DNA of 64,000 bases from Candidatus Cloacimonadales bacterium (GCA_963674825.1 OY771587.1:2176001-2240000), one strand, 5' to 3'. Counted from the stretch's first letter, positions 35,628-59,000 are shown. Notes: generated by a model not told the origin, from the letters alone. Numbers and translations: made by a program.

Positions 35628-36084
35628 AAGCAGACTGAACCATATGAACGTGCCAGGTCCAGAAAACGACGGGCACGAGACCAGATTGCGAACCGCTCTG
35701 AAAGAACGTTACTTTGGAGCCGAGAAAAAATACCAATACCGTTTTCGCCTATCGGTGGGATTTGCCTCAGTGCTTCTTGTGATACTGTTCGTTTTTATCT
35801 GGAATCCCGAGCTTGCCATTCGGGCCAACCAGATCGCCTTCCAGGGTGACGTTACGGAGCGGTTCGATCCCTCTTCCGAGATTGCGGACGAAGAATTCGT
35901 CGATTACACCTCGCTGTACAATCCGGAGATTTATCCGATGTTTCACAACGAGGAATACGAAGAGGAAAAAGCATACGTGATACGGAAATACAATTCGCCT
36001 GCGAAAGGCGAGCTGATGATCGTTTCCGAATTTGACCCGGTTGAGACGCTACCTGTCGGGAAAAACCTTCCCGGCAGTATATAG
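35617..36084 (+). CDS. Putative single-pass anti-sigma factor
   Basis: Overlaps the sigma gene end; short N-terminal helix (HETRLRTAL), one TM, acidic ectodomain. Confidence 0.65.
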   Translation: MDFESRLNHMNVPGPENDGHETRLRTALKERYFGAEKKYQYRFRLSVGFASVLLVILFVFIWNPELAIRANQIAFQGDVTERFDPSSEIADEEFVDYTSLYNPEIYPMFHNEEYEEEKAYVIRKYNSPAKGELMIVSEFDPVETLPVGKNLPGSI

Positions 36085-36111
36085 AACGATATTTTGTACA
36101 GGAGGTTAAAA

Positions 36112-37365
36112 ATGAAAAGATTCATGCTGTTACTGCTGATCCTTGCGATTGCGGGATTTGCATCACTTTCTGCGAAGCCCTTCATGGGGGTTTTCACCAG
36201 TACACTCGATGACGACGATTACGAGGACCTCGGCCTCAAAGATTACTACGGTATCCTTATCGAAGAGGTCATCGATGATACTCCCGCTGACAAAGCCGGA
36301 TTTGAAGACGGCGATGTTCTGCTCAAGATCGAAGGTGACAAGATCTACACCAGCGACCAGCTGACCAAGATGCTTTCGTCAATGGATCCCGGCAAGAAGG
36401 TCAAATGCACGGTTCTGCGTGACAAGAAAGAAATGACACTCAAGCTCGAAATCGGTGAACGCAGCGATTATACCGCCAAGAAACCCTTTATCGGAATCAA
36501 TATGAGCAACCTTAAGGCTTCTACACTCGAGAAGAAGGGTGTGACTGAAGGCTACGGCATTCTGCTCACCGGTATTGTGGACGATTCGGCTGCTGACAAG
36601 GCCGGACTGAAGAAAGGCGACGTGCTGCTTCAAATCGGTGACGACAAGATTTATACAACGGATCAACTCGGTAAGATCGTCGATCGGATGAAGATTGGCC
36701 AGAAGTCAAAGTTTGTCGTTTCGCGTGAAGGCGAACGCAAGACGGTTGATGTAACCATTGGAGAAAAAGAGCTTGGATTCAGCCGCAAGAACTCGTGGTT
36801 CAATAATATTCCTAATTCGATCAAGATCATCAAGGACATGAAGAAACACCCCAACGCGATTGGGTTCACGCTCAAATCGATCAATGCAGGCAAAGAAAAC
36901 AAGGGAAACCAGAAGGTTGTTATCAGCCGTATCGAGAAGGATTCACCTGCAGACAAGATCGGACTCAAGGTAGATGACGAGATCATCATGGTAGAAGGAA
37001 AAAGCGTCAGCGAAATCGACGATATCTTCGATATCATCGACGACAAGAAGGTTGGGGACAAGATCGAAGTGAAAGTCCTTCGCGATGGCAAGGAACAGAC
37101 CTTCAAGCCCGAATTGATGAAGCGTTCGGATATCTACGACGAAGAAATCAATATCCTCTACAATGACGGTGAACTTGTCATCGAAAAAAATGGTGAGCGG
37201 CTTGAACTCAACAGTGAAGAATACCTCAAGCAAATCCAAGGTCTTCAGGGCCTTGAGCAGCTAGAAAAGCTTGAAAAACTCGAGAAGCTTCAAGAACTTG
37301 AAGATCTGGACATCGACTTCGATTTCGACTTCGATTTCGATGTGGCAGGCTCAGGGGAAATCTGA
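36112..37365 (+). CDS. Secreted triple-PDZ-domain protein without a protease domain
   Basis: Signal peptide; three (P/A)ADK.G...D units; low-complexity LEKLEKLEK/DFDFDFDFD tail; AGGAGGT RBS. Confidence 0.85.
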   Translation: MKRFMLLLLILAIAGFASLSAKPFMGVFTSTLDDDDYEDLGLKDYYGILIEEVIDDTPADKAGFEDGDVLLKIEGDKIYTSDQLTKMLSSMDPGKKVKCTVLRDKKEMTLKLEIGERSDYTAKKPFIGINMSNLKASTLEKKGVTEGYGILLTGIVDDSAADKAGLKKGDVLLQIGDDKIYTTDQLGKIVDRMKIGQKSKFVVSREGERKTVDVTIGEKELGFSRKNSWFNNIPNSIKIIKDMKKHPNAIGFTLKSINAGKENKGNQKVVISRIEKDSPADKIGLKVDDEIIMVEGKSVSEIDDIFDIIDDKKVGDKIEVKVLRDGKEQTFKPELMKRSDIYDEEINILYNDGELVIEKNGERLELNSEEYLKQIQGLQGLEQLEKLEKLEKLQELEDLDIDFDFDFDFDVAGSGEI

Positions 37366-37427
37366 TCTAAAAAAATCCGTCTCGCATTGACGGATCAATA
37401 AATCCTCCCTCTCCTAATGCATATCCT

Positions 37428-37500
37428 ACAAATTAGCCGGCTCCCCGCCGGCTTTTTTGCATCCCCTCAAACAAATTAGCCGGCTCCCCGCCGGTTTTTT
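37428..37500 (+). repeat. Tandem duplicated terminator hairpin
   Basis: Exact 24-nt repeat ACAAATTAGCCGGCTCCCCGCCGG at 37428 and 37471, each followed by a T-run. Confidence 0.85.
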
Positions 37501-37987
37501 ATTCTACTCTGATTCCGATTTCCATCACGCCCGATCGTATCGCGATGTCTGTTCCGATACCATCCAGCTTCTTTTTTGCTTCGGCAGGCATGTCGCTGAT
37601 GGAACGAATCCACCGGTCGGTGAGGTTGAGCGACAGCACGCCGTTGTTCATCTGCATATCCAGGCCGAACCGGCCGATCAGGTACGATATCGCCTTCTGG
37701 ATGATCATGTTGACGTTCAGGATTCTGGCCTTTATCACCATCCTGCGACTGCTAACCTCGATTGCCTCGACCGCGATCTGAGGCTTGATCTCGATCTGCC
37801 CGACGATCGGCGCTTTCATCGACGCGGACAGCTCAAGATAGCCGTCTCGGGATACGATGGACGATACGGGGATGTCTATATCCCGCTTGTATGCCTGCAA
37901 TAGACGGGCGAGTTGCGCGTCGGTCAGCTTCAGGGTGAAATGCCCGGACAGCCCGGGTAGCAAGTTCATCAATGTTTCGCGATCCAT
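37499..37987 (-). CDS. Hypothetical protein
   Basis: AGGAGA RBS before ATG 37987; about 162 aa with amphipathic beta strands; no recognised motif. Confidence 0.6.
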   Translation of the reverse strand: MDRETLMNLLPGLSGHFTLKLTDAQLARLLQAYKRDIDIPVSSIVSRDGYLELSASMKAPIVGQIEIKPQIAVEAIEVSSRRMVIKARILNVNMIIQKAISYLIGRFGLDMQMNNGVLSLNLTDRWIRSISDMPAEAKKKLDGIGTDIAIRSGVMEIGIRVE

Positions 37988-38119
37988 ATTGGTTCTCCTC
38001 TGAGTCCAGAAGCAATCTTTCGCGCGGCGCGTCAAATTTCTTCTGATTTTTTCAGAAACTTCCGAACCATTTTGACAGAATTCTGTTTATCTGGCGGATA
38101 TTGTTTCGAAGGAGAGATT

Positions 38120-39343
38120 ATGAAACCCAAGCGCGAAGAAGAATGGCAACAGGACATCGTTGAGATCATTCCGAGGTTGAGGAACTGGATCCACCGCTAC
38201 ACCGGGAACAAAGAGGACACTGACGAAGTCTTGCAGCAAACACTCATCAAAGCCTTGCAAAGCCTGGTCGACTTCAGCGAGCCGTTCAACCTTCAATCGT
38301 GGCTGATGACCATCGCACGCAACCAGAGCTTCGACTATCTGAAGGAGCGCGGAAGGTTGGTTTACACCAGCTCGTTTGTCCTTGAACGGAATTTCAACGT
38401 AGATGAGATGAACGATCCGGCAGTGGTCGAATCGATGGGGAATCTACCTTTAAGAGATCAATATCTTCTTTTCATGAAATACTTTACGCATCAGAAGGTT
38501 TCGGAGATCAGCAAGCTTTTAAAGATTCCCGAAGGCTCGATCAAACGGCAATTGCACGATGCACGAAACCGATTGAAAAAGGAGATAACCATGCCACAGA
38601 AAGGTAAGTATATTGCACCTGAAATCAAGATAGAAACGGTGAATAATCCACCGGAAAGAATGGTTCAGCGCACCGGCTACGGCCTCTTCATGGGTTCACC
38701 TGTGAAAGGCATTGGTGACGTTGAGAAGATAGCAGGTTACGAACATCCCGGAAGAATTCATGTATTTGAAGCAGACAGCATCGTGACGCGACAAGCTGAA
38801 ATTCTCGGAAAGCAGGTGTGGGAAGTACACAACACGTACGACAAACGAGAAGGAGAAGCCGAACGATTTCTATACTATACGATAGAAGACGACACGATCG
38901 CAATGCCGTTTCGGGTGTTCCATTTCGGCGATCCTGACAAGATCAGAATCGATATCGATCAGAATGAACTGGTACAGCCGATGAATCTTACGATAACAGC
39001 GCCATCAACCGAGATCAGCGAGAAGGAAATTATTGAACGCGATATTGTCAATCTCACTATCGGAGAAAAAGTGTATGAAAATTGCATTCGCGTTCGAACC
39101 AGTGAGGACGACTTCCATGGCCGGAATTACACCGAGAGTTTCATCGACACGGAAGGTCGTGAGGTTCTGCACAAGACGTACATCTCCGAGGGCTGGAAGA
39201 TGGGTGGATTTGTTACCTGGGAGAAATGGAAGGATGCTCCTGAACTCGAATTCCATGGCGAGAAATTCCGCCTGTGGTTCGAGTTTGTGCTCCTCGGCAC
39301 CCGTAAGGCAACCGAAGAGGAGCTACCACGAAAACGCGGTTGA
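38120..39343 (+). CDS. ECF sigma factor with ~250-aa C-terminal extension
   Basis: DTDEVLQQT, WLMTIARN, EISKLLKIPEGSIKRQLHDARNRL, then a long soluble extension; AAGGAG RBS. Confidence 0.85.
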   Translation: MKPKREEEWQQDIVEIIPRLRNWIHRYTGNKEDTDEVLQQTLIKALQSLVDFSEPFNLQSWLMTIARNQSFDYLKERGRLVYTSSFVLERNFNVDEMNDPAVVESMGNLPLRDQYLLFMKYFTHQKVSEISKLLKIPEGSIKRQLHDARNRLKKEITMPQKGKYIAPEIKIETVNNPPERMVQRTGYGLFMGSPVKGIGDVEKIAGYEHPGRIHVFEADSIVTRQAEILGKQVWEVHNTYDKREGEAERFLYYTIEDDTIAMPFRVFHFGDPDKIRIDIDQNELVQPMNLTITAPSTEISEKEIIERDIVNLTIGEKVYENCIRVRTSEDDFHGRNYTESFIDTEGREVLHKTYISEGWKMGGFVTWEKWKDAPELEFHGEKFRLWFEFVLLGTRKATEEELPRKRG

Positions 39344-41326: not shown

Positions 41327-41941
41327 CTACTCCATTTTAGCGCCAAGCATTCCAGACCACCCGTGTATCACGAAGCTCATGATCTGTCGACCACTTTCCA
41401 AAGCCTTATCGACAGGTAGTTTATAACGTACTGAATCCATGATAAAATGCACCCACATTGCCCCAATGTAATGTGTCAGGTATTCTGAAGGCCTCTCTGC
41501 CTGAATACCGTATTTTTCCCGGACGGCTTCCACTGATAGCTGCATGATTCGGGCAAACCAGCGAGTCACCTCTTCAGGCAGATCGGAAAGCGAAGAGCCT
41601 TCGGAGTGATAAAGTAGCAGATCGAACATATCGCGATGCGCATAGACGTATTGAATGGGCTTATCCATCAATCGCATATGGTATTCCATATCATGGTGTT
41701 CTGGCCCTTTTTCCACGGTCTCAATGAATTTCTGCCCCAAACGAAGGTTTTCCAGGATTTCGGCAAATATCTCGCAGAACAGCGCGTCTTTGTCCGGGAA
41801 ATAATTGTAAATATTGCTGAGTGTGACATCGGCATCAAAAGCGATGGCTCTCATCGACGCTTTACGGAATCCTCTTTTCATGAATTCCTTGCGTGCGCTT
41901 TCAACGATTGCGTTACGAATATGTTCTTTTTGAATCTGCAT
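41327..41941 (-). CDS. TetR/AcrR family transcriptional regulator
   Basis: F..RGFRKASMRAIA...VTLSNIYNYFPDKDALF helix-turn-helix. Confidence 0.92.
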   Translation of the reverse strand: MQIQKEHIRNAIVESARKEFMKRGFRKASMRAIAFDADVTLSNIYNYFPDKDALFCEIFAEILENLRLGQKFIETVEKGPEHHDMEYHMRLMDKPIQYVYAHRDMFDLLLYHSEGSSLSDLPEEVTRWFARIMQLSVEAVREKYGIQAERPSEYLTHYIGAMWVHFIMDSVRYKLPVDKALESGRQIMSFVIHGWSGMLGAKME

Positions 41942-42437: not shown

Positions 42438-45400
42438 GTGATGATTGTACGACGGTTCTTATCCGGCTTGTTTCTATCAGCACTCCTGATTCTGGTCTGC
42501 GTTCCGCTTGCAGCACAAGACATGACAGTAAAAAGTCTTGTGGTGGAGGACGTACCGGACGATGATGGTACGGGGTTGCAGATTAGTTGGGAGCCGCTTC
42601 CCAAAGAAGCGCGAATAATTGAGTACAGGGTATATCGTGGCGTAAGCAGCGATTCGCTGTTTTTTATCGGACGTATCCCTGTAAATCCGAAAACAGGTGT
42701 GGCTTCAGATCGTATGTATTTTTACGACAAGAGCTACAACTACTTTCTTGACGTTCGGGCGTCGGGCAAGCTGAAAAAAGAAAAGCAGCAGCCAGAAGAC
42801 AGCCCGCTCTACCAAGAGCTGCCCAAGGACCTTGCGGTTACCGGTCCCATGCTTAAGCATTACCGCATCCTGGGTGTGATCCCCAAGAAGGAATTCTATT
42901 ACCACACGACCAAAGTCGAGCGGGAAGTTCCTGATGAGGAAGATGGAACCGCAGACGCGGAAGAAGAAGGCGATGAAGAAGACGACGGTCCCGACGTGGA
43001 AACCTACGCCGGCCTGGAAATCCGCCAGCTCTCCATGTACAAGAAACTGATCCCGGATCATGATTACTACTACACGGTTCTGGCCGTGAATAAAACCGGT
43101 AAGTTTCTGCCTTACTGCGAACCGCAGAAAGGAGCCCCCCGCAACAACGCGCCGGAAAAGACCAAAGAATTTTATTCGGTGTATGTCAGCGACCTGAACC
43201 GCTTGCAGTTCGAGTGGTCACTTCCGCTGAACAATGAGGACATCCGTACGCACAACGTGTACATGATGCACAAGGACGATCTGCCTCAGTTTGAACAGTA
43301 CGTGAAGCAGATCAAGCAGGAAGAGATGAATCTTCTGGCGAGCAAGATCGACACCAGCGCAGTGATTCCTCCCATCGAGAATCCGGTGGATAATCCTGCG
43401 ACACTGATCTTTACCCGCCCGACTGCTTATCCTTACACTTCCGTCAAGACCTGCCTGGTCGATATCGAGGCTAACGAAGACGGAACCATGCACATCTACG
43501 ACGAAGATAACGGTATCGATGTGCCGTTCGATCCCGCGATGGTTGGCGACTACCTGTTCGTTTTCTCGTTGATCGAATATCCTGACGAAAACTATCCGGG
43601 CTACGAGACATTCTCCGAACCCATCCTGACAAAGACCATTACCGATAGCGATCTGCCGGAACTTCCCGCGATTACCGTTGAGGACAAAGAGAACGACAAG
43701 GGCGATTACAACACCATTTACTGGGGTAAACCGATTGTAAATCTTTCCAAAGCCGTTATCCTCAAGGAACAACGCGAAGAAGATGAAGAAGGTAACCTTA
43801 TCCACTCGAACATCGAGAAATTACTGGTAAACTATGAAATGCAGACGAACAAGCATTACAAGGTTTATAGCATCTACTTCGATGTCTTCGACAAGGACGG
43901 CAACCTGATCGACACGGTAAACGAGTTCTATCAGGACAACAAGATCAAAATCTCATCGTCCAATGGCTACAACCTGAAAGACGGCGTGAGCCTTGCAATC
44001 CGGTTCCATACCGATCACGACGATGAATTGGGTGAGGGCTACACGCTTTCACAGGATCTTTACTTCAACGATATTTCTCGTTCGATGGAACCGGGTGACC
44101 TGATGCATGGCGACGAGATCGTGGACGATTACTACTACATGATCACCAAGCAACCGGCTTCTTCTTCGAATTTCCGCGAAGCAAAGAAACTTACCGGCTT
44201 CATGCGTCAGCTCGACGATACCATTAACTACGAACGCAGCATCTTCAAGGGCGTATCCGAATACGATCTCGAAAAGAACATGCTTCTGGTAAGCCCTCCG
44301 ATGTCCGTTCGCTATGATTATGAAAACGATACTTCGATCAGTATCCCGATTTACGGATCAGTACTCGAAGAAAATATGGAAGACTATCAGGAAACCGTGG
44401 ATGAATACACAGCGAAACGCGATTCGGCTGCGACAGAGCAAGATAAAGAACGATATCAGATGTTTATCGATCACTACTCGGCTCAGCTGAACAATGAAGA
44501 CCTCAAGAAAGCGAGAGGATTCAAAAGCGATAAAAACCGCAATAAATTCATCGCCGGTATCCGCGAACACGCAGCCCGTAATTTCAAGTACAGGATGATC
44601 AAGTCTGACGGACAGGCAGCGTTCAGAATGTCTGAAGTGTATCAGGACGCCAACGGAAACGAGCGTTTCTTCCCGGTTCCAAACTGGTTCGATACATCCA
44701 AATGGGCTATGTTGATCGCGACGGTTATCTTCGGCTTCATGGTGTTCTACATGATTAGCAGAGCACGTAAGGGGCACGATTTCTACCTCAGACCGATCGC
44801 TGGTATCGAGGAAATCGATAACGCGATTGGCCGTGCGACCGAAATGGGACGTCCCATTCTGTTCGTCCCGAGTATGTCGGGTATCTCCGACGTGGCGACA
44901 CTGGCAGCGCTTTCCATTCTTGGAAAGGTTGCCAAGAAAGCGGCTGAATACGATACGAAGCTGATCGTACCATGCCGTGACTACATCGTCATGCCGATCG
45001 CACAGGAAATTGTGAAGGAAGCGCACTACGAGGCAGGTCGTCCGGATACCTTCGATAAAGGAAGCGTATTTTTCCTGACCACCTCTCAGTTCGCGTATGT
45101 CGCTGGTGTTAACGGTATCATGATTCGCGAAAGAACCGCGACGAACTTCTATCTCGGAATGTTCTACGCAGAGTCGCTTATCATGACCGAAACCGGTAGC
45201 AATACAGGTGCGATTCAGATCGCGGGAACTGACGCTGTTACGCAGATTCCGTTCTTCATTACCACCTGTGACTACACCCTGATCGGTGAAGAATTATATG
45301 CGGCCGCGGCTTACCTTGCCCGTGAGCCCCTGATGATGGGAACCTTGAAGGCTCAGGACTACGCCAAGTTCATTATTCTGGCGCTGGTCATCATCGGTAC

Positions 45401-45455
45401 GGCGCTTTCGTCGTCCCACCTGACCTTCTTCATCAGAGCGTTCCCGGATAAATAG
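42438..45455 (+). CDS. Membrane protein A1: signal peptide, ~730-aa FN3-like ectodomain, TM, DUF6754-like domain, C-terminal TM
   Basis: DVPDDDG...ISW...YRVYRG; TM followed by RARKG; RPIAG...AIGRATEMGRP...QIAGTDAVTQIPFFITTCDYTLIGEELYAA. Family name is from memory. Confidence 0.75.
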   Translation: MMIVRRFLSGLFLSALLILVCVPLAAQDMTVKSLVVEDVPDDDGTGLQISWEPLPKEARIIEYRVYRGVSSDSLFFIGRIPVNPKTGVASDRMYFYDKSYNYFLDVRASGKLKKEKQQPEDSPLYQELPKDLAVTGPMLKHYRILGVIPKKEFYYHTTKVEREVPDEEDGTADAEEEGDEEDDGPDVETYAGLEIRQLSMYKKLIPDHDYYYTVLAVNKTGKFLPYCEPQKGAPRNNAPEKTKEFYSVYVSDLNRLQFEWSLPLNNEDIRTHNVYMMHKDDLPQFEQYVKQIKQEEMNLLASKIDTSAVIPPIENPVDNPATLIFTRPTAYPYTSVKTCLVDIEANEDGTMHIYDEDNGIDVPFDPAMVGDYLFVFSLIEYPDENYPGYETFSEPILTKTITDSDLPELPAITVEDKENDKGDYNTIYWGKPIVNLSKAVILKEQREEDEEGNLIHSNIEKLLVNYEMQTNKHYKVYSIYFDVFDKDGNLIDTVNEFYQDNKIKISSSNGYNLKDGVSLAIRFHTDHDDELGEGYTLSQDLYFNDISRSMEPGDLMHGDEIVDDYYYMITKQPASSSNFREAKKLTGFMRQLDDTINYERSIFKGVSEYDLEKNMLLVSPPMSVRYDYENDTSISIPIYGSVLEENMEDYQETVDEYTAKRDSAATEQDKERYQMFIDHYSAQLNNEDLKKARGFKSDKNRNKFIAGIREHAARNFKYRMIKSDGQAAFRMSEVYQDANGNERFFPVPNWFDTSKWAMLIATVIFGFMVFYMISRARKGHDFYLRPIAGIEEIDNAIGRATEMGRPILFVPSMSGISDVATLAALSILGKVAKKAAEYDTKLIVPCRDYIVMPIAQEIVKEAHYEAGRPDTFDKGSVFFLTTSQFAYVAGVNGIMIRERTATNFYLGMFYAESLIMTETGSNTGAIQIAGTDAVTQIPFFITTCDYTLIGEELYAAAAYLAREPLMMGTLKAQDYAKFIILALVIIGTALSSSHLTFFIRAFPDK

Positions 45456-45465
45456 AGGAGGACAG

Positions 45466-46092
45466 ATGAAACGAACCATTCCATTGTTGATCGTGATCAT
45501 ATTGGGTTTTACCTTTGTGGCACAGGTCTTCATTCCTCATAAGATATCCCAGGATTTCTACTTCGAGTGGTACCTGGTATGGACCAAGGCGATGTCGCCG
45601 TTTCTTGTGCTCCTCGGTGTGATGAGTCTTTTTATGATTCATGGAACCAAGATTCAAAGAAGAGCACATGACTGGCAATACAGTATATTCGTGTTTGTGG
45701 GCCTGATCGGTACGGCTGCTGCCGGCTTCATCTGGGGTCGTCAGGACGGTACACCTTACATGTGGATATTCGAGAATATCCAGATGCCGCTCGGTGCGAC
45801 CATGTTCTCGCTGCTGGCGTTTTATATCGCGTCAGCTGCTTACAAGGCGTTCCGTGCACGTTCTATCGAAGCTACCGTGCTTCTGATTGCCGCTATCATC
45901 GTGATGCTGGGTCGTATCCCGCTGGGTGCCGCGCTCAAGATCGGTATCCCCGAGACCACAACCTGGATCCTCAACGTCCCCAACCTTGCTGCAAAACGCG
46001 GAATCGCGCTTGGCGTTGGTCTGGGCATGGTGGCGACTTCATTGAAAATCATACTCGGAATCGAACGCACCTATCTGGGTGGCGGTGATTGA
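45466..46092 (+). CDS. Uncharacterised polytopic membrane protein B
   Basis: About 6 hydrophobic helices; ATMFSLLAFYIASAAYKAFR, AKRGI, IILGIER; GAGGAGG RBS. Confidence 0.8.
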   Translation: MKRTIPLLIVIILGFTFVAQVFIPHKISQDFYFEWYLVWTKAMSPFLVLLGVMSLFMIHGTKIQRRAHDWQYSIFVFVGLIGTAAAGFIWGRQDGTPYMWIFENIQMPLGATMFSLLAFYIASAAYKAFRARSIEATVLLIAAIIVMLGRIPLGAALKIGIPETTTWILNVPNLAAKRGIALGVGLGMVATSLKIILGIERTYLGGGD

Positions 46093-46105
46093 TAAGGAGC
46101 GAACC

Positions 46106-47434
46106 ATGAATTTCTTCGATAAACTGCAAAACCTCGACAGGCGATACATCTATATCGTGGTCGCCCTCGCGATTATCATTCCCTTCCTGATTCCGTTCAA
46201 CCAGCGGACCTACACGACCGAGCCGGTCGAGAACATCTACCAGCTCATCGACTCGTACGCCGGTACCGTCAACGAAGACGGAGAAAAGGAATTCCAGGAA
46301 AAGGCTATCCTGATGGTGTTCTCGCACGATGCTGGTACAATGCCCGAGCTCTTCCCGATGGAAATCTCCGTGCTGCGTCACTGTTTCCTGCGCCACGTGC
46401 GTGTGTTCACCCTTTGTTTCACGCCGGTCGCTTCTCCGCTGATGGACTATGCGATTACCACCGTGAAGGAAGAATTCCCGAACATCAAATCAGGTGAAGA
46501 TTACATCAACTTCGGCTACAAACCCGCCGCTCTTTATATGCCGATCGTTCTCGGTATGGGCGATAACATCGCCAAGGCTGTGGAAACGGACGCTGAAGGC
46601 CGTAACATCGAAAACCTCGATGCGATGAAAAACATCACCAACTACAATGAGATGAACTTCATCATCGAATTCTCCGCCTCGACTGCAGGCGTTACCTGGT
46701 ACACATTTGCCCGTGCACGTTTCGGCGCGAAAGTGGGCGCAGGTATCACCGCCGTTATGGCTGCCGACCAGTACCCCTACATCCAGTCGGGTCAGCTTGT
46801 CGGTATCCTGGGTGGTCTCAAGGGCGCTGCCGAGTATGAAGAGCTCGTCGATGTCTTCGCCAATCACAAGCTGGAAGCCAACGGCAAGAACCTGATCAAG
46901 GATCACGACGGCTACCTGATTAAAGTGAAAAAAGCTCAGAATATGGGCCCGACCGAAGACAAGACCTTCGACGAAATCGGCATGTGCATCTACGAGCGTA
47001 AAGACGGATTCCATATCAAAGACGAAAACGGAAACCTGATCAACGCTGAAGACGCACGTCGTATCCGCGACAAAGGCAATAACCTTGTGAAAGTCAATGA
47101 CACGAACCTTATCAAGAACAGCGAAGGCTTCTATATCACCTCTACAATGAAAGAGAAGATCGAAGCCGGAAACGAGAAGCAGATCGGTCGTTTTGACCGC
47201 TACGTACACCTCGGTGACGAGATGTTGCCGGATGGACGTCGGTTCAGTAAGGAAATCGTCAAAGATGGAGAAGAAGGGATCACCATCACCGGCGAAAGCG
47301 TTCTTTATAAATTCAAGATGGCGCGTATCGGCATGAATGCCCAGACCGTTGCCCACCTTATGATCATTTTGTTCATTATCCTGGGTAACATCGGCTTCTT
47401 CCTGCAGAAACGCCGCGAGAAACTTGGTAAGTAG
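46106..47434 (+). CDS. Uncharacterised membrane protein C (N- and C-terminal TM flanking an alpha/beta domain)
   Basis: DRRYIY then TM; YPYIQSGQLVGILGGLKGAAEYE; C-terminal TM then KRREK; AAGGAG before ATG 46106. Confidence 0.8.
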   Translation: MNFFDKLQNLDRRYIYIVVALAIIIPFLIPFNQRTYTTEPVENIYQLIDSYAGTVNEDGEKEFQEKAILMVFSHDAGTMPELFPMEISVLRHCFLRHVRVFTLCFTPVASPLMDYAITTVKEEFPNIKSGEDYINFGYKPAALYMPIVLGMGDNIAKAVETDAEGRNIENLDAMKNITNYNEMNFIIEFSASTAGVTWYTFARARFGAKVGAGITAVMAADQYPYIQSGQLVGILGGLKGAAEYEELVDVFANHKLEANGKNLIKDHDGYLIKVKKAQNMGPTEDKTFDEIGMCIYERKDGFHIKDENGNLINAEDARRIRDKGNNLVKVNDTNLIKNSEGFYITSTMKEKIEAGNEKQIGRFDRYVHLGDEMLPDGRRFSKEIVKDGEEGITITGESVLYKFKMARIGMNAQTVAHLMIILFIILGNIGFFLQKRREKLGK

Positions 47435-47445
47435 GGGAGGAAGAT

Positions 47446-48045
47446 ATGTTTGAAGTTGTAAGTAACACAGTAGCGGCTCTTTTGACGTTATCGATCTTCT
47501 CGTTCCTGTATAAGGACAATCCCTTCTACCGGTTCGCAGAGCATCTGTTTGTCGGCGTATCGATGGGTTATGCAATTCCGCTGATCTACGATTCAGTGTT
47601 CATTCCCTACGTTTATACGCCCATTTTCCTTCAGCACAAATACATCATTCTGATCCCGACGCTGTTGGGTCTTCTTTATCTGACCCGTTTCAGCAGAAAC
47701 CTCAGCTGGCTCTCACGCTATCCGATGGTCATTTTCATGTGTTCCACCGGTATGTACGTGCCGCTTTCGATGAACGCGCAGGTTCTTGTTCAGATGCGTA
47801 GCGCAATGCTTCCCATCGACAACATCAACACCGCGCTGATCTTCATCGGAACGGTCACCATCCTTATGTACTTCTACTTCTCGAAGTCACATCAGGGCTG
47901 GTATGGCAGAGTGTCCAAGATAGGTGTCTGGTACATGATGATCGGCTTCGGCGCTTCCTTCGGCTACACTGTGATGGCGCGTATCTCGCTCCTGATCGGT
48001 CGTATTCAGTTCCTGATGGGAGACTGGCTGGGTCTGATAAAATAG
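47446..48045 (+). CDS. Uncharacterised polytopic membrane protein D
   Basis: SFLYKDNPFYRFAEHLFVG, YFYFS, MIGFGASFGYTVMARISLLIGR; GGGGAGG RBS. Confidence 0.8.
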   Translation: MFEVVSNTVAALLTLSIFSFLYKDNPFYRFAEHLFVGVSMGYAIPLIYDSVFIPYVYTPIFLQHKYIILIPTLLGLLYLTRFSRNLSWLSRYPMVIFMCSTGMYVPLSMNAQVLVQMRSAMLPIDNINTALIFIGTVTILMYFYFSKSHQGWYGRVSKIGVWYMMIGFGASFGYTVMARISLLIGRIQFLMGDWLGLIK

Positions 48046-48070
48046 CGGTTCTACCGCATACGATTTCAAT

Positions 48071-48096
48071 CGGAGTGTTCCTGCGGGAACACTCCG
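48071..48096. other. Intergenic stem-loop without U-tract
   Basis: Perfect 11-bp stem CGGAGTGTTCC-TGCG-GGAACACTCCG. Confidence 0.6.
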
Positions 48097-48132
48097 TTAT
48101 TCGTATCATACCGGAAATGAGGTTGTAACGAG

Positions 48133-50940
48133 GTGAAAATGAGAAGAATCTACCTGCTATTGATCTGCCTGATCGCGGTTCAGTTTCTTTCCGCCGATAT
48201 GTCGGAATATCAGGTTCAGGATCTGCAAGTATCCGACATTCCCAATGACGATGGCTCAGGCCTTATGCTGAGCTGGAACCCCCTTCCCAAAGAAAAGCGT
48301 ATCATCGAGTACCGTATTTATCGCGGTATCTCGCCAGACAGCCTCTTCCTGCTGGGCAGTATCGAAGTGAACGCGAAAACCGGTGTCAGCGGCGATAAGA
48401 TGTATTTCTACGATCGCGGATTCCTCGATTTCGTTTCCATTTATTCTCCCGCTTCAATGAAGCCCGATACGCAGCTCGAATCACCGTACTATCGCCCGAT
48501 TCCACGCGATATAAACGTTTACGGTCCAATGCTGGAGCACTTTTATATTTTGGGTGTGATTATCAACGATGAGTTTTACTACCGTGCCCAGAAGATCGAA
48601 ACGGATGACGGTGTCTCTGCCGGATTGAATCTGTATCAGTTCGACGGACTCTACGCGACAGTGCTTCCCGGAGAAACATATTACTACGCGATCGGCGTGG
48701 TGGACAAAGCCGGCAGGCACTATCAGCCATGCCCGGTTGCGAGCGGTTCGCCCGAGGATAACTACCCGGAGAAGCTGCATCGGTTCGACCCTGTCTATGT
48801 GAGCGATCTGAATCGTCTGCAATTCGAGTGGGACCTGCCGGTTTTCAAGGACGATATCCACTACCACAGCATCTATATGCTCGAAGAGAGCCAACTGGAA
48901 CAGTTCGACAAGTTCACTGAGGCGATCGGTGATACAACACAAACCGTCGAAAATCCGGCACAGCTTGTATTCAGACGCCAGACTGCATTTCCTTACGAGT
49001 CTATGGATATCGCGGAAGTCGAGGTAAAAGACGGCCGTATCGTGGATGAAAAGCATGATATCGATGTGCAGTACGATCCGCAGAAGAAGTACTTCTTCGC
49101 AATCTCGCTGGTTGACTATTACGATCGTGAGACGTTCTCCGATCCCAAACCGCTGGATGTGATTACATCGGAAGATTTACCGAAACTGCCTCCATTTGAG
49201 ATTCGCGATATGCCCAACGACAAGGGTGAATACAATGAATTGTTGTATGCGAAGCCCCTTGTGATGATCTCAGGAGCATCCTACAAAGGCGATAATCAAG
49301 TTGTGCTCAATTACGAAATTAACCTGAACGACGACTATCGTATCAACAACATCTTCTTTGACGTGTACGATCATGAGGGTAATCCTCTGGGTCATATCAA
49401 TGAATTTTACCAGGACAACATCGTGTATGTCGATGTCCCCGACCATGAAACCGTGGAAAAGGGCCTAACTGTAAGGATGAGCCTAAAAACCGGTAAGACT
49501 CCGGTGCCGGAAGATTACATCCTTTCTCAGGACGTCTTCTACAGTTCTGATATCAAAGACTTCCAGATATCACCTCTGAAGATCGGCAACGAGGTTGTGC
49601 AGAATTTTCAGTACAAACTTTATAAGCGCAGCCCGTCAGAGGCCGTGTATCGCACGGCGAAGAAGCTGAGCCCTTACCAGCGTTTCCATGACGACAACAT
49701 TCCGTACGAAACATCCATCTTCAAGCTGGTCAACCAGTTTGATGCCGCGAAGGGACTGCTGCTGGTATCACCAAGCGTGACGGTCTATTTCGATCGCGAG
49801 AAAGAGATGCCCGTTGAGACGAGCATTTTCGGTGATGAAGTCGCGAACTCGATTGAGGAATGGACCAAGGAAGCCGATGCTTATGCCGATTCCGCTGCTA
49901 CAGCGGCAACGGACGAGGAAAAAGCCTATTACGAAGAGGCTGAGAAATACTACCGCGGCATGATCAGCACGCAGCAGGATGATCCGTATATCAGTAAGGC
50001 AAACCAGATCAAGAGCAATCGTAAGCGCATGAAATACCTGTCGGATGAACGCCACAGGATGAAACGCAGCTTCGAATACCAGTTCTGCAAGAGCGACGGT
50101 AGAGGGCGCTTTACGCTCTCCGAACCTTACGCGCATGATGGCGAGACCTTCTTTTTCCCGAAATCGGAGTGGTTCGACACCAGCAAAATTCCTATGCTGA
50201 TCTCGACGCTGCTGTTCGGATTCTTCGTATGGTTGTTCATTATGCTGGCACGGCGTGGGCGCGATTTCTACATTCGCCCAATCGCCGGACTTTCCGAAAT
50301 CGATAACGCGATCGGACGCGCCACAGAGATGGGAAGACCGATGCTATTCGTACCGGGACTCTCATCCATCGACGACGTCGCAACCCTGGCTGGTCTGTCC
50401 ATCCTCGGGCACGTTTCTCGTAAGGCGGCCGAATACGACAGCCGGATCCTCGTGCCTGTGTGCGACTACATCGTATTGCCGGTTGCGCAGGAGATCGTCA
50501 AGGAAGCGTATTTCGAGGCCGGACGTCCCGATGCTTACAACCGTGGCGATGTATTCTTCATCGCGGAACGTCAGTTTGCATACGTCGCTGGTGTGAATGG
50601 TATTATGCTGCGTGAGCGTACCGCGACTAACTTCTTTATGGGTATGTTCTTCGCGGAAGCGCTGATCATGACTGAAACGGGTAACGCAGCAGGTTGCGTG
50701 CAGATCGCCGGAACCGACGCCGTGACCCAGATCCCGTTCTTCATCACCACTTGCGACTACACACTGATTGGTGAGGAACTCTACGCTGCGTCTGCATACC
50801 TTTCCAAGGAACCGCTGACGCTCGGAACTCTCAAGGCACAGGATGCCGCCAAGTTCCTGATCATTCTCTTCACGATCGTAGGAACCATCCTGTCTACATT
50901 CCACCTTACATTCCTCATCAACGCTTTCCCAAGCCAATAA
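48133..50940 (+). CDS. Membrane protein A2, full-length paralog of A1
   Basis: Same architecture and motifs (DIPNDDG, LNRLQFEW, NEFYQDN, KSDG, AIGRATEMGRP, QIPFFITTCDYTLIGEELYAA). Start may be ATG 48139. Confidence 0.75.
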   Translation: MKMRRIYLLLICLIAVQFLSADMSEYQVQDLQVSDIPNDDGSGLMLSWNPLPKEKRIIEYRIYRGISPDSLFLLGSIEVNAKTGVSGDKMYFYDRGFLDFVSIYSPASMKPDTQLESPYYRPIPRDINVYGPMLEHFYILGVIINDEFYYRAQKIETDDGVSAGLNLYQFDGLYATVLPGETYYYAIGVVDKAGRHYQPCPVASGSPEDNYPEKLHRFDPVYVSDLNRLQFEWDLPVFKDDIHYHSIYMLEESQLEQFDKFTEAIGDTTQTVENPAQLVFRRQTAFPYESMDIAEVEVKDGRIVDEKHDIDVQYDPQKKYFFAISLVDYYDRETFSDPKPLDVITSEDLPKLPPFEIRDMPNDKGEYNELLYAKPLVMISGASYKGDNQVVLNYEINLNDDYRINNIFFDVYDHEGNPLGHINEFYQDNIVYVDVPDHETVEKGLTVRMSLKTGKTPVPEDYILSQDVFYSSDIKDFQISPLKIGNEVVQNFQYKLYKRSPSEAVYRTAKKLSPYQRFHDDNIPYETSIFKLVNQFDAAKGLLLVSPSVTVYFDREKEMPVETSIFGDEVANSIEEWTKEADAYADSAATAATDEEKAYYEEAEKYYRGMISTQQDDPYISKANQIKSNRKRMKYLSDERHRMKRSFEYQFCKSDGRGRFTLSEPYAHDGETFFFPKSEWFDTSKIPMLISTLLFGFFVWLFIMLARRGRDFYIRPIAGLSEIDNAIGRATEMGRPMLFVPGLSSIDDVATLAGLSILGHVSRKAAEYDSRILVPVCDYIVLPVAQEIVKEAYFEAGRPDAYNRGDVFFIAERQFAYVAGVNGIMLRERTATNFFMGMFFAEALIMTETGNAAGCVQIAGTDAVTQIPFFITTCDYTLIGEELYAASAYLSKEPLTLGTLKAQDAAKFLIILFTIVGTILSTFHLTFLINAFPSQ

Positions 50941-50955
50941 CGAAAACAATAGAAG

Positions 50956-50984
50956 AGGGCAGGTTGAACACCTGCCCTTTTTTT
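50956..50984 (+). terminator. Rho-independent terminator closing the five-gene operon
   Basis: AGGGCAGGT-TGAAC-ACCTGCCCT plus T-run. Confidence 0.8.
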
Positions 50985-51068
50985 ATGCTCGATGAATTGA
51001 TCTCAAGAAAAACTTGCGTGATTCGTATCGTTGTCTATTCTTAGATCAGAACTTTCTGGAGAGTATCT

Positions 51069-52647: not shown

Positions 52648-55600
52648 CTATTTCAGAAGGATCATTTTCTTGGTAGCTGTGTACCGTCCTGCTTTCATCT
52701 TGTAGAAGTAGATGCCACTTCCTACAGGTTTACCGTCATTGTCTTCACCGGTCCATCGTACATTGTGGTTGCCGATCTCGCGATGTTCGTTGAGCAGAGT
52801 CTTGACCAACTGTCCTTTGAGGTTGAAAACCTCGATGGTGACATCGGCTGCTTTTTCCAGCGAGAAGTCAATTTGGGTCACCGGATTAAACGGATTCGGA
52901 TGATTTCCCATCAACATGGTCGTGACACCAGGAACGTCGTTCTGGTCGTTGTCTACAACGGTCGCCATATTGGACATTCCGGACTCAAAATTACCTTCGT
53001 AAACAGCGGTGATGAAGTATTGATACACGCCACCAGGAACGTTATAGTCAATATAACCTGTGATGCCAGGATTATTCTGTGTATCGATGATGATGTAGTC
53101 GCGATAGATATTGTAGCGAATGATCTCGGGTCGGTTGCGGTCTGTGCGGGTGTTTGGCATGGCTGCGGAAAGGCGTGCGATTCCATCGTTTTTCAGCGAT
53201 CGATCGCTTGTTGCGAAGCGCGGCTCGCCAAGTGAACGCACTGGAGAGCTGACGAAGACATCGTCGAGTTTCAGCCAGTACATGTCGGTCACTTCATTAT
53301 GCACGAATGCGATATAGACGGTTTCACCCGCGTAATCACTCAGATCGAGATAAACCTGATGCCAGTTATCGTTCTGGAGTGTCTCTTCATAGATCAGCTC
53401 AGTGAAATCAATCATCTGGCTGCTGGAAGTTGAGAGACGGACTTCCAGGTGCTCCGCTGGCCAGGAAGCGTCCTGTGCCGAGATATAGAAAGCCATATAA
53501 GCGTTATCGTAAAGGTTAACAGCGGGTGTGACCAGCCAGTTATTGGGCGTGAGCGCGCCAATTTCGTTGATGTACGACGCCGAAGCCATGCAGAAGTCTC
53601 CCGAATTGGGTGTGAAGCCGTTCGGCGCGATTTCCCAGCATATTTCGTCACCATCTGCGTCATAGACCTGCCAGTTGGCTGGAAGATACCCATCTTCGAA
53701 ACCTTCTTCGATGAAATCGACAGCTTCAACATCGCCACCGTTGGGAGCATCCCAGTCAAGGTGGACATCGTCGCCTATGATGTTGTAGGTCAGATTTACT
53801 GGTGCAGGGTAGTTTCCGGAGATGAGAACTGTAGCTGTATTGGAAGGGATCGATTCGTCGCTTCCGTTGTAAACAGCGGTTACCCAGTAGGTGAATTCAC
53901 CGTCTTCAAGGCCTTCGTCGGTCCATGTAAGGGTATTGGTACCGTTGATTTGCTGAACGACATTCCCATCACGATAGATTTTATATCCGGTGAGGTCGCG
54001 ATCAGTACGGGTAGCACCTTGAGAAAGAATGCGTCCGTAACTGGCGTAACCAACGATGTTCCAGTTGTAGTCGAGGCTGGGATATTCCGTTGCAAGGGAA
54101 GTCCAGCCACCAAGATTAATGAGGTCGCCTTTCCAAAGCACAGCAGGGCCTTCCGCACAACCAGCGGGATGATCACCCTGTGTATCGCAGTTGTAGCCGA
54201 ACCACAGTTCTTCAGAAGAATCGATCGTCACAGGGTCGTCGAGTACGACGGTGTTCCATGTGTTGATGACGACATTGGTGACTTCCTGCTCGGCGACGAG
54301 GTCGCCGTCTGAAGCACTAGAGCCGTTACAGCTTCCGCCAGTCCACACTTTGATTGTGTAATCACAATCTTCGTAGCGTGGGAAAAAGGAGACTTCGGTG
54401 AGTGAGAGTCCATTGAAGGATGCCAGATCGTCAGTATCGAAGCGGATAGCGACATCAAAATCCGCAGCTGCATTAGTTCCGATACCATTGTAATTGATTC
54501 CATCATCCCAGCGCAGTTCGCCCGGTTCGCCGGTGGGCGCTTGCCAGGTGAGTTCAACATCCACATCGTTGACAACAGTAGCCGTGAGGTTGGTTGGTGG
54601 GTCGCCGTCAGAAGGTCCATCGGAAGGTTCGATTCCAATCAGCGCTTCCTGATCATCGGTGAAATCGTAGTATCCAGGGCTGAGGTCGTTCAGATAATAA
54701 TAACCATTGTAGCTTCCGCTCCAGCCGAAGTTGAAGTGGAAATAGGATGATCCCTGATAACCATCCAGAACGAATGCGTGACCGTAATCGCCGTATCCAG
54801 CATAAAACACTGGATGACCATCATCGAGTTCGCTGATCATGAGGTTGTTCCAGACCGCATCTGAATAGCTATCTTTGTGAACCAGTTGGATGCTGTTTTG
54901 GTAACCGAAGTATGTGGGAAAAGCATACTGGGTGTCGAGTGAGTTCGAACCAGAGCCATCAGGACTGTAGTCCATATCGACAGCAACGCCGCAATGGAAA
55001 AGAAGCTCTGCGATGTCTGAGTCGTAGGATGAGATCGAGTTGGGCATGCTGCTCCAGTTGTAGGTAGTGCTGCCAAAATCTGCGGATATCGTGCCGTAAT
55101 CGGGGTGATTGTAGGAGTGGGTTCCGGTTCCTGTTTCCGGGTGCTGCCAATAGCGCATAATCTGCCCCATGGTGGTTGCACCGCAACCAGCATACACGTG
55201 TCCGCCAGGACCGCTCGCGTCGTTGGGACAGTCACCGTTATAAGGATAGTCCTGATTCCAGATCGTGGTAACCAGCGGTGATACATCGCGCGTGAACTCG
55301 AAGTTGGAGAAGTTGTTCGAAAGCATCTGCTCCCAGATCGCGATCGTCTCCTCATTTCCGGTATTCGCGGCACGGATCGCTTCGATTTGTTTGATGTACA
55401 TGTCTGACAACCATTTAGCGCCGGGCTGATTAGCATCTTGTGGTGCGGAGTCAGTTGTCGAGTATGCGAGAACTGGATAGGACGCGTCGTCGGCTGCGAC
55501 TATTACGAATCCGCCTTCAGCGTAATTGAACACATATACTGCCGGATTTTGTGCATCGGGGCTGGAGAATGCATTGCTCAGAGAATAATTGGTGTGTCCA

Positions 55601-55716
55601 CTGCGATTTATATACCAGTTATTGGCAAGTTCGCGAGCGGTCTGCATGGTTACCGGTTCCGCAAGAAGCGTTACGAATAACGACAGCAGAATCAGCATAG
55701 GTACCATCTTTTTCAT
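52648..55716 (-). CDS. C10 family (streptopain/SpeB-like) cysteine peptidase with propeptide, FN3, cleaved-adhesin-like and FlgD-Ig/T9SS-like domains
   Basis: GFVIVAADD propeptide; WNQ..PYN, AGCGAT (Cys), GHAFVLDG (His), HFNFGWSG; LTPNNWLVTP; NHPNPFNP tail. Confidence 0.92.
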   Translation of the reverse strand: MKKMVPMLILLSLFVTLLAEPVTMQTARELANNWYINRSGHTNYSLSNAFSSPDAQNPAVYVFNYAEGGFVIVAADDASYPVLAYSTTDSAPQDANQPGAKWLSDMYIKQIEAIRAANTGNEETIAIWEQMLSNNFSNFEFTRDVSPLVTTIWNQDYPYNGDCPNDASGPGGHVYAGCGATTMGQIMRYWQHPETGTGTHSYNHPDYGTISADFGSTTYNWSSMPNSISSYDSDIAELLFHCGVAVDMDYSPDGSGSNSLDTQYAFPTYFGYQNSIQLVHKDSYSDAVWNNLMISELDDGHPVFYAGYGDYGHAFVLDGYQGSSYFHFNFGWSGSYNGYYYLNDLSPGYYDFTDDQEALIGIEPSDGPSDGDPPTNLTATVVNDVDVELTWQAPTGEPGELRWDDGINYNGIGTNAAADFDVAIRFDTDDLASFNGLSLTEVSFFPRYEDCDYTIKVWTGGSCNGSSASDGDLVAEQEVTNVVINTWNTVVLDDPVTIDSSEELWFGYNCDTQGDHPAGCAEGPAVLWKGDLINLGGWTSLATEYPSLDYNWNIVGYASYGRILSQGATRTDRDLTGYKIYRDGNVVQQINGTNTLTWTDEGLEDGEFTYWVTAVYNGSDESIPSNTATVLISGNYPAPVNLTYNIIGDDVHLDWDAPNGGDVEAVDFIEEGFEDGYLPANWQVYDADGDEICWEIAPNGFTPNSGDFCMASASYINEIGALTPNNWLVTPAVNLYDNAYMAFYISAQDASWPAEHLEVRLSTSSSQMIDFTELIYEETLQNDNWHQVYLDLSDYAGETVYIAFVHNEVTDMYWLKLDDVFVSSPVRSLGEPRFATSDRSLKNDGIARLSAAMPNTRTDRNRPEIIRYNIYRDYIIIDTQNNPGITGYIDYNVPGGVYQYFITAVYEGNFESGMSNMATVVDNDQNDVPGVTTMLMGNHPNPFNPVTQIDFSLEKAADVTIEVFNLKGQLVKTLLNEHREIGNHNVRWTGEDNDGKPVGSGIYFYKMKAGRYTATKKMILLK

Positions 55717-55950
55717 ACAGTTAACTCCTTATTTATTATTTATATGAATCTTTAAGTTCAATGTCTGTAATAATGACATGCATGGATCATTCCGTCAATC
55801 AAAAAAGTTTGAATAATAGGTCGGAAAACGAAATATTGAGGAAGATTCGTTTTTTTTGGGGAGAGGATTCCTTGGCGAGAGTGTCGATCCCGTTATTTGC
55901 GCCTTGCATAGCTGATGATAGATTATATACCATAGCTTCGACCGATATAG

Positions 55951-55982
55951 AAAAACCGCTCCCGAATATGTTCCGGGAGCGG
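55951..55982 (-). terminator. Rho-independent terminator of C25 gene
   Basis: AAAAACCGCTCCCG...CGGGAGCGG. Confidence 0.75.
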
Positions 55983-56007
55983 CGTATATTGTATTAGCAG
56001 GTATTTA

Positions 56008-59000
56008 TTACTTCAGAAGAAGCATCTTGCGTACAGATGTGTAATCTCCCGCTTCGAGCTTGTAGAAGTAGACACCGGAAGAAACACTCTTTCCTGCGTC
56101 GTTCTTACCAAGCCAGCGAACCGAGTGCGGACCTGCTTTCAGTTTATCGTTAACCAGCGTGCGAACCCGTTGTCCCTTGATGTTGTAAACAACAAGCACT
56201 GCCTTCTCGTCATTGGCAAGCGAGAAGCGGATCGTTGTTTCAGGATTGAAGGGATTGGGGAAGTTGCTGCCGAGATTGTTTACGTACACCGGCACATCAC
56301 CATTGTTGACGCCATGCGGGAACCAGTCAACAGAGGATACGTGATTGGTTGTATCGCTAACGCCTGTAGCATATACGGCTTGCACATAGTACTGATGATC
56401 GCGTGTGGTGTCGATCACTTCAGAGTAGGTCATTTCTTCAGTTGATGCGAGCTCGATGAACGATCCAGTAGCGATCTGACGGTAGATATTGAAATGCAGG
56501 AAGTCAACGCGTTCATCCCTCTGTTCTCCACGATCCTCATCGGTGTTGTATTCCCAGTCGAGGACGATGGTGTCGTCTTCCATGACATAGGAGAGGTCGT
56601 ATGGCGGTGTGAAGTAGCTGAGGTTGAAGTCGTAGTCTTCGAGTGCATCGCCGAATTCCAGATCAAGATCGTTATAGGATGCCGATTCGAAGAAATAGCA
56701 TGCTCCTGTGAGTTCTTCGTAGGGTGACGGCGAGACATAAACCATGTAAAATCCGGTTGTGTCCGGATGCACCGCGAAATCCCCAATCGATACAGTCGCG
56801 GTCTCTGGCCCGATTAATTCGTTATCAAGTGTGACGACACCGGATATCGACGCGGAATTGCCAAGAATCGCGTTCAAGACGATGTCATCGATGAACCAGT
56901 AGTTGATATTGAACGAATTACCCGAGAGGTACCAGCCGAACTGAATATTGGTTGTGTTGACCATTTCCATCGGAATATCTACGTTAATCGTTTCAGGAGG
57001 TATGCTACCGGAGGGTGTAACTTCCCAAATAGTGGTCCAGTTATATGAATCGGATCTCATAGCTAGCCCGAGACTGTACTCGCTACCGCTATAGTCGTTC
57101 AGGCTGTGTTTGAACTGGATTGAAACGTTGGTTGCGCCAATCAGATTCATCGAATGTGTGGTCAGGTGGGAAATCCCATTGAAAGAGGGAGACCAATTGA
57201 GTTTGGCCTCAGGAGCGGTACCACCTGCATTATTAGAATTAGATGAGGTCCAGTTCTCAGAATGTTCGTCAATTGACCAACCTTCCGGGAGCCATGTGCT
57301 GAAATCTTCTTCCAGGATTTCCGGTGCCAGTCCTGAACCGATCGCCAGGTTAAACTGCACGGCATCCATGTTGTCTGCCGTTACATCGAGATCAAATGGA
57401 ATGACCGTTTCGGATGGCGTTGCACTGGATATATCGATCGTATAAGAGACCTGGATTGCCGAACCAGCTTTGATCGTGCCGTAACTCTGTTCCGGAGTAA
57501 GAATGTCAGCGTACCCACTATTGGTACTCATTGCACCAAAGACATTGAGAGCATCGATTTCGCTCGGATTTTCGATCATGATGGCGAAAACAATCGTCTC
57601 ACCAGCGTCGGCGTTACCGTTGCCATTGCCTTCGGAATCGTTAAGAAGACACAGCGAGACATTCAATTGCGGTTTGCGTACTATCCTCGAGAAATCGTAT
57701 GACCATACGTAACCGGTACAATCGATATCGAGCGTGAAAGCCATTACGTGATCTGCTGGTGCATCGGGGCTTAGGCTGAGTGAGAAATAGGTATCACCGT
57801 AAGCGCTATATCCACCTTCAATATCCGGAAAGAAAGAACCGGTTGACGTGATGTCAACATATGGATCGCTGGAAGAGAGGGTGGCATGAACATTTGTCGC
57901 GTCGCCCTGTCCTACGTTGTTCAGGAGGATGCCGAAGTTAACGGTCTCACCAGGCTCGATAATCCCGTTGCCGTTTGTCTCAGCCATGAGAATATCACCC
58001 ATCGTGAGGTAGGGGTTCTCGAGGCTGAGCGGAACTCCGGTAAACAGGATTGCCGTTCCATTGCTGAGCGGCATGGCTGCTGTCGGGTATTCATTATCAT
58101 AGGAGTATTGCAGACCAAGCAGGCCTGTTCCGTCTTCCAAGCCGATCGTACAATAGTTACCCTGGCTTCCACCGTTTGAATTGTTACCATCGACATTGTT
58201 GAATGTATGATACTGGATCTTGATCTCACCGTTACCGGAATTCGTTGGGTAAAACGCTGGATCGAAAAGAATAACCTCGAAGGTTTCTGTTGAGTAATCA
58301 GCGGAGTTTCGGCAGTTTGACCATTCGATAACAAAGTAATTCTCTGTAACGTCATAATATGTGAAGATACTGCCATCACCGGTTTGAAGATCATCCCAGA
58401 AAGCGGCGATCATCGGATTGGGACCCATTGGGCCAGGAATCGGGAAGTTGCGGAACGTGACCTGTTCGGTTTCTCCCATGGTGATCCAGCCATTTGAGCT
58501 GATGGTAATCTGGTCGTAGAGTTCGCCGTAGAAGCGGAAGGTAAACGGGAGGTTCACGGTAGCGATTCCATCGACACTTTCGCCTTCAGGTGTGTCATCG
58601 TTAATCCCGGTATTGGTGCCTTGGCCGCCAAGCGAAGGATTGATCTCTATCCAATCGTAAACGGGCGCTTGGTAATAGCCCGTATCGCCACTATCGTAGC
58701 ACATATAGCCATAGGTATCCGGTCCGAGCGGATCGGTCTCTGTTACGATGCCGATCGGGATATCGAAGGTCTCGTATTCACTATATCCAGCTTCATTATA
58801 GAAGTGAATCTGAACCGGCAATGTCATGCCGGTGACCACCGTTGATAACGCGGTCACGACAAATCCGTCCGTGTTGCATGAAGCTGAATGGTTTACAGTG
58901 ATGTCTCCGAAATATGCCGCGGAATCCCCGATTTCGAGCTTACTGCTGAGCGCTGTGAGTGTAGCGTAAACATCGTCGAGATCGTTCCCGCCGTTATTCT

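Follow-up and report, generated by a model that had tools for sequence, protein, structure and literature searches.

Positions 42,438 to 50,984 of the window analysed here, by which we mean the whole stretch of 64,000 nucleotides from the genome of a Candidatus Cloacimonadales bacterium, hold five consecutive genes for membrane proteins, two of which share a domain that Pfam lists as DUF6754. Such a block raises three questions: which of its genes constitute a conserved system, what might energise that system, and what might it do in the cell?

A conserved four-gene unit and an optional fifth gene

The block consists of five intact open reading frames on one strand, in the order A1-B-C-D-A2, with a hairpin at each of two points:

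42438..45455, plus strand: A1, 1005 aa (an alternative ATG start at 42441 is possible)
45466..46092, plus strand: B, 208 aa
46106..47434, plus strand: C, 442 aa
47446..48045, plus strand: D, 199 aa
48071..48096, plus strand: D/A2 hairpin, terminator-like, with an 11-bp perfect stem and an imperfect U tail (spacer z -3.70)
48133..50940, plus strand: A2, 935 aa (an alternative ATG start at 48139 is possible)
about 50951..50986, plus strand: closing hairpin, intrinsic-terminator-like with a T run (z -5.95, 0/200 shuffles equally stable)

As a preliminary description of this DNA had noted, the co-oriented genes are separated by short gaps (10, 13, 11 and 87 nt), a ribosome-binding site of the AGGAG/GAGG type lies ahead of all five starts, and each of the five products carries the hydrophobic segments of a membrane protein. 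The terminator that it placed at the end of the block is present too, but it is not the only one, given the second hairpin in the D/A2 spacer. Elsewhere, too, the long-A loci that were folded have a hairpin behind D, with or without A2.

Gene order in other genomes distinguishes the first four genes from the fifth. From the bacterium's own phylum, which by the labels of its homologs is Cloacimonadota, we picked 20 loci that encode a long A; A-B-C-D is complete in 19 of these, the 20th being cut by a contig end, and A2 follows in 11 of the 19 complete loci. For other genomes we used 78 loci, taken from the best 80 of 621 matches; they represent WOR-3, Zixibacteria, Poribacteria, Fermentibacteria, Nitrospirota and other phyla. 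Counting only A genes that have room after them, B, C and D come next in 85 of 89 cases (for another 22 there was no such room), and 19 of these 78 loci from the best 80 matches have two or more B genes, one case being a split gene. The expectation that the genes co-occur across genomes is thus borne out for A-B-C-D. Moreover, 37 long A proteins were placed in a quick tree, drawn with midpoint rooting and no bootstrap; the 24 first-position genes, window A1 among them, fall into a single clade (SH-aLRT 99) that excludes all 13 genes of the A2 position. Because the two positions separate in this way, A2 is best regarded as an old paralog that is absent from several lineages. Judged from gene order and this tree, the conserved unit is A-B-C-D, and A2 is an old optional paralog behind a hairpin. 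The preliminary description had proposed an obligate multi-subunit membrane complex of five genes: a conserved multi-subunit unit stands, its order being kept over many phyla and its members occasionally fused (C-D, B-C), but with A2 in 11 of 19 loci the five genes do not form that unit.

The genome carries a second A-B-C-D operon with a short A of 367 aa (G000:C1:162039-158765). Directly upstream of the short-A operon, a gene for a 265-aa lipoprotein-like product with no Pfam match is seen in 18 of 30 loci (L002-L031; e.g. L006:2697-3491); it is possibly a lineage-specific binding protein.

Architecture of the membrane subunits

Both A proteins are full members of DUF6754 (PF20539), matching it at E-values of 8e-117 (A1, residues 748-999) and 2e-117 (A2, residues 677-930), with 389 and 391 bits against a cut-off of 27 and the whole model covered. 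The domain assignment of the preliminary description is therefore right, but its size of about 200 aa is not, as the domain spans about 255 aa with both flanking TM helices included. A1 is laid out as an N-terminal signal-like segment, an extracytoplasmic region of about 720 aa, a TM helix, a cytoplasmic alpha/beta domain and a second TM helix, the last three parts being DUF6754. The literature searched describes neither a function nor partners for this domain. Mean column identity is 60% in the DUF6754 part of A, as against 33% in B, 27% in D and 26% in C, the sets being differently sampled. Hence the proposed division into a B/C/D core and A receptors is not upheld: by sequence conservation A is itself a core subunit, and its DUF6754 part is the best conserved piece of the system.

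In contrast to this part, the outer region of A varies. The window A proteins carry a 660-720-aa fibronectin-III (FN3) ectodomain, whereas most A proteins of other phyla have 290-500 aa in total, and a PQQ-type propeller also occurs on A. A2 is 46-48% identical to A1, and its ectodomain is modelled as tandem FN3 sandwiches with inserts plus a helical hairpin. The A ectodomain matches FN3 structures with Foldseek E-values down to 1e-9 (Z 11.1, rmsd 2.1 over 92 residues), and fold searches returned this FN3 chain and no recognised ligand-binding fold. The DUF6754 part of the A2 model is poor (residues 817-875 at pLDDT below 50), and FN3 matches filled the fold lists.

For B, C and D there was no Pfam match near cut-off, and NCBIfam gave no real match for any of A1, B, C, D and A2. 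C belongs to a large family (4665 clusters at 50% identity, E <= 0.001), of which 122 homologs scanned for known families gave a best E-value of 0.011. It is predicted to consist of a TM helix, an extracytoplasmic Rossmann-like alpha/beta domain and a TM helix, with an additional insertion of about 155 aa ahead of the last helix in window C. An AlphaFold2 model of a paralog (P0008, pLDDT 96.9) has the same three parts. Fold searches with this model gave generic matches (1kjn, Z 10.2, rmsd 3.5, 140 aligned), and Foldseek found none at E <= 0.001. B is a six-TM protein, predicted N-in/C-in, and D is a six-TM protein with a possible seventh hydrophobic stretch, predicted N-out. Solved-structure sequence searches with A, B, C, D and S (a cytoplasmic partner introduced below) yielded nothing below E 0.03.

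Positive-inside counts on alignments of 77-122 sequences place the soluble part of DUF6754 inside and the C domain outside, with B N-in and D N-out. This predicted topology agrees with two natural C-D fusions, which have an extra linker TM between the halves, with one natural B-C fusion lacking an extra TM (a single record, possibly an artefact), and with C-like inserts in the TM3-TM4 loop of B. That outer loop accepts large insertions in relatives: among the 120 best long B relatives, 119 carry one there, a C-like domain being found in two of these and in L066. FG-GAP repeats also occur in B. C-like domains also occur as extra modules in the A ectodomain or the B outer loop at L214 (G132), L066/L212, P0483 and P0484. 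Conserved polar residues lie in or beside the TM helices of C (H251/N262), B (S123) and D (T14/S19/T175/R186), and N25, E32, T175 and R179 are invariant in D. By eye, helices and strands succeed one another in the same way in the A domain and in C, and this order of elements suggests an inverted duplication with A paired to C and B to D; HHalign probabilities for both pairs are 1-3%, which is not significant, and the best global A-C alignment paired terminal helices only. A complex prediction with the L001 paralogs A(DUF6754)+B+C+D scored 0.75, as did a control with C replaced, two partner-replaced controls scoring 0.00; we give this prediction no weight.

A predicted actin-fold ATPase and its partner inherited with the membrane genes

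Among the 78 loci from the best 80 of 621 matches, three cytoplasmic proteins recur as neighbours: M (about 600 aa, PF13941, MutL/GlmL) in 5, S (375 aa) in 6 and E (125 aa) in 6. A search based on S reverses the perspective. Within 8 kb in 80 metagenome loci it finds M in 54, E in 38, A in 27, B and C in 26 each and D in 24, usually in the order E-M-S-A-B-C-D; many of the remaining loci are short contigs or belong to lineages with the two halves apart. The present genome has its halves apart, with two sets of cytoplasmic genes about 0.4 and 1.4 Mb from the window operon, respectively:

G000:C1:2637281-2633829: E-M-S
C1:3654186-3657257: fused M-S gene (with its TetR gene, C1:3653524-3657257)

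In two genomes of the same family (L035, L047), a TetR gene and a fused M-S gene lie directly upstream of the long-A operon, the fusions being 44% and 49% identical to the one in this genome, which suggests that the M-S fusion, far away though it is here, may serve the window operon. The divergent TetR gene at 41330-41941 in the window was considered as the TetR accompanying the fusion and rejected (25% over 126 aa, where the other TetR reaches 44%). The fused M-S protein (L131:7187-10258) and its L035 ortholog start with a short CxxC...CxxC segment. A small membrane gene, F, with no family match, often precedes E-M-S (11 of 80 S loci, as well as L064:1164-1703), and in several loci it comes after glycine-cleavage P genes.

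M matches PF13941 at an E-value of 2.6e-127, and both copies in this genome keep DxGSTTTK, DIGGATTD and GxGG motifs, which we take to be the phosphate-1, phosphate-2 and adenosine motifs of the ASKHA (actin/Hsp70) fold. On these motifs, M is a candidate non-Walker ATPase, a long member of the GlmL/MutL family. The preliminary description had covered the five membrane genes; the candidate energiser of the system, an ASKHA-type ATPase with its partner S, is encoded elsewhere.

Databases name M 'glutamate mutase L', so one might take it for a true GlmL that reactivates a B12-dependent mutase, with A-B-C-D handling cobalamin or being an accidental neighbour. A figure legend describes MutL/GlmL as a chaperone that reactivates glutamate mutase (PMC4682846), and M shares the ASKHA core and motifs of GlmL/MutL and the Or-4 accessory ATPases (PF13941, NF040745, NF040744, TIGR01319). 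However, M has 600-635 aa against about 450-460 in those models and falls below all three NCBIfam cut-offs (NF040745, 218 of 475 bits; TIGR01319, 158 of 204; NF040744, 202 of 600); its scores for GlmL, where 475 bits is the cut-off, are 218 and 182 bits. Its companions are S, E and a membrane cassette, where a GlmL would have a mutase, and no mutase gene was recognised among the recurrent neighbours. Glutamate mutase E (PF06368) was not found in four of five M-carrying genomes tested, including this 99.6% complete one; it was found in G265. We therefore consider a true GlmL most improbable.

S is built of barrel-sandwich repeats, a central alpha/beta domain and a KOW-like end, and it has relatives named as KOW-domain proteins. 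Its N-terminus matches barrel-sandwich segments of RnfC/NqrA (E 4e-5 to 2e-4), which, together with six-TM subunits B and D of opposite predicted orientation, could point to an ion-translocating or redox complex distantly akin to Rnf/Nqr, with S in the place of RnfC/NqrA and B/D in that of the inverted RnfA/E pair. The S matches cover only 50-90 residues, however, and score about 21 bits where the cut-offs are 246-345. A-D have no Rnf/Nqr family match, the B and D consensus sequences have no conserved cysteines, and the system lacks flavin and Fe-S subunits as well as full-length RnfC/NqrA or RnfA/D/E/G-type subunits, all of which makes such a complex very unlikely.

The distribution of DUF6754 and S links the two halves across genomes. 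In 547 genomes from five phylum samples the two agree in 544 (315 with both, 229 with neither), the 3 discordant ones being drafts; since genomes within a phylum are related, these are not 547 independent tests. The patchy phyla are the most telling: the same 19 of 121 genomes carry both in the phylum of G124, S immediately preceding A in 18 of the 19, and the same 29 of 149 in that of G123. In the phylum of G121 the same 4 of 5 genomes have both. The phylum of G122 has DUF6754 in 151/151 and S in 149/151, mostly with 4-6 DUF6754 matches per genome against one S. The sample of 121 genomes from the bacterium's own phylum comprises 114 with both, one with S only and 6 with neither; these last (G002, G005, G008, G017, G023, G064) belong to one reduced genus with closed genomes of 1.5-1.6 Mb. 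All 10 additional genomes with the cassette contained S as well (in two of them it had been noticed nearby before they were chosen), and DUF6754 was absent from all 14 control genomes. We thus regard functional coupling of A-B-C-D to M/S as very probable.

A possible importer with a shared energiser

That the coupled system performs transport we hold about half as firmly as the coupling itself. Our main reading, to which we give a probability of about 0.45, is an ATP-driven solute importer of a new type. Gene content, gene order, co-occurrence, the ATPase motifs and the predicted folds of C and the A ectodomain are its basis, and from these we infer the topology, physical assembly, docking, ATP use, transport and a substrate. 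A-B-C-D would be the inner-membrane module of a seven-component system, E-M-S-A-B-C-D, in which S is a fixed partner of the ATPase M. B and D, in opposite orientations, would form the membrane pathway, while catching or gating the substrate may be the task of the outer domains of A and C, plus the B inserts. On the cytoplasmic side, the DUF6754 domain of A would dock M/S, whose ATP cycle could then drive a conformational change of the membrane module. A single M/S module would serve several paralogous membrane cassettes, and A2 would be an alternative A for the same B-C-D. An importer with a shared energiser fits best because it accounts for a conserved cytoplasmic domain on a polytopic module, a co-inherited ATPase pair, variable outer domains and the presence of several cassettes for each ATPase.

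Group II ECF transporters and MsmK-type shared ATPases likewise use one cytoplasmic energiser for several paralogous membrane units, and with 4-6 DUF6754 matches per S they provide a working analogy. In contrast to these, the ATPase here would be of the actin fold and not ABC, and A-D, E, M and S gave no match to an ABC ATPase, EcfT, EcfA, S-component or permease family. One B relative (P0529) has the NCBI label 'ECF transporter S component'. By such family searches, the system is a member of none of the known transporter families tested, and the view of these proteins as uncharacterised stands, with no confident full-length match to a characterised complex in Pfam, NCBIfam or structure sequence searches. 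To our knowledge, no solute transporter driven by an ASKHA-fold ATPase has been described. Somewhat more tentatively than the importer itself, we suggest that E-M-S-A-B-C-D may represent a new class of primary active transporter. Its motor would be an ATPase of the actin/Hsp70 fold where others have an ABC, P-type or F-type one, A/B and C/D would be two halves of opposite orientation, up to six cassettes would share one ATPase module, and the machinery would be near-core in several little-studied phyla.

As to the substrate, the recurrent neighbours in the 78 loci (best 80 of 621 matches) include no transporter or substrate-binding gene, and no metabolic gene in more than 6. Peptide or amino-acid uptake had been argued from the peptidases of the window. 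The tricorn, C10 and C25 peptidases are real, but they are not conserved neighbours of the cassette. The full operon is found in Nitrospira as well. For Ca. Nitrospira inopinata, NCBI records CUQ67816-CUQ67820 are C, B, A, S and M, and as this organism is a chemolithoautotroph, peptide uptake becomes somewhat less likely.

Near-universal retention in two phyla (151/151 and 114/121 genomes) is as compatible with a housekeeping role in the envelope as with uptake, and an envelope-biogenesis or export platform is the alternative that this brings in. M would then resemble PilM, GspL, FtsA or MreB, which are actin-fold proteins at inner-membrane platforms, and A-B-C-D would move or place lipid, glycan or protein, with A extending its FN3 stalk as far as the wall or outer membrane. 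The long FN3 ectodomains suit such a role, as do outer domains free to vary from a PQQ-type propeller on A to FG-GAP repeats in B, and in a few loci (L149, L163, L175) Tol-Pal-like genes, read from their sequence starts, come after S. PilM-PilN-PilO-PilP and GspL-GspM resemble the present system in tying an actin-fold cytoplasmic protein to inner-membrane proteins with outer domains, but differ in lacking any sequence match to it and any counterpart of polytopic B and D. Moreover, no pilin, pilus, secretin or polysaccharide gene recurs near the cassettes, the system is patchy in two other phyla (19/121 and 29/149), and several paralogous cassettes per ATPase module would be more typical of substrate-specific units. 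We judge such a platform rather unlikely.

The receptor-like build of A, with its FN3 ectodomain, TM and cytoplasmic alpha/beta domain, and the optional second A with a diverged ectodomain could also befit a transmembrane sensor, in which A is the receptor, B-C-D are co-receptors and M is a nucleotide switch, not a motor. The C model even resembles RCK/TrkA regulatory domains weakly (3l4b, Z 9.3, rmsd 3.5, 129 aligned), but this score is tied with unrelated Rossmann enzymes, many other rows standing at Z 8-9. The C domain is predicted to lie outside, unlike RCK domains, and the recurrent neighbours of the cassette include no kinase, sigma factor or response regulator, so that a sensor is distinctly improbable.

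Whichever function applies, A-B-C-D is a real conserved membrane module of an ATPase-linked system that is apparently undescribed. Our literature search, from which subscription journals were mostly absent, found no paper with DUF6754, PF20539, PF13941, TIGR01319 or IPR046642, and no paper or experiment on any subunit or on the system. Yet its seven genes co-occur almost perfectly and have been retained by nearly all sampled genomes of two phyla, and the filing of M as 'glutamate mutase L' misleads metabolic reconstruction. Subunits are recorded for two cultured bacteria, Ca. Nitrospira inopinata and Calycomorphotria hydatis (a C-D fusion in NCBI records), which makes the question testable.

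Other genes in the window

Three further groups of genes were observed. At 243-4965, hydrogenase-maturation-type genes (a BATS-domain protein and HydF) flank a lyase of the fumarase/aspartase family. T9SS-like or FlgD-like domains form the C-terminal ends of large secreted peptidases (C10 and C25) and of one more protein, encoded at 52651-61458 and 5144-7408. Finally, the stretch 35599-39340 encodes a triple-PDZ protein and a small membrane protein in the vicinity of an ECF-type sigma factor whose C-terminal extension is long.
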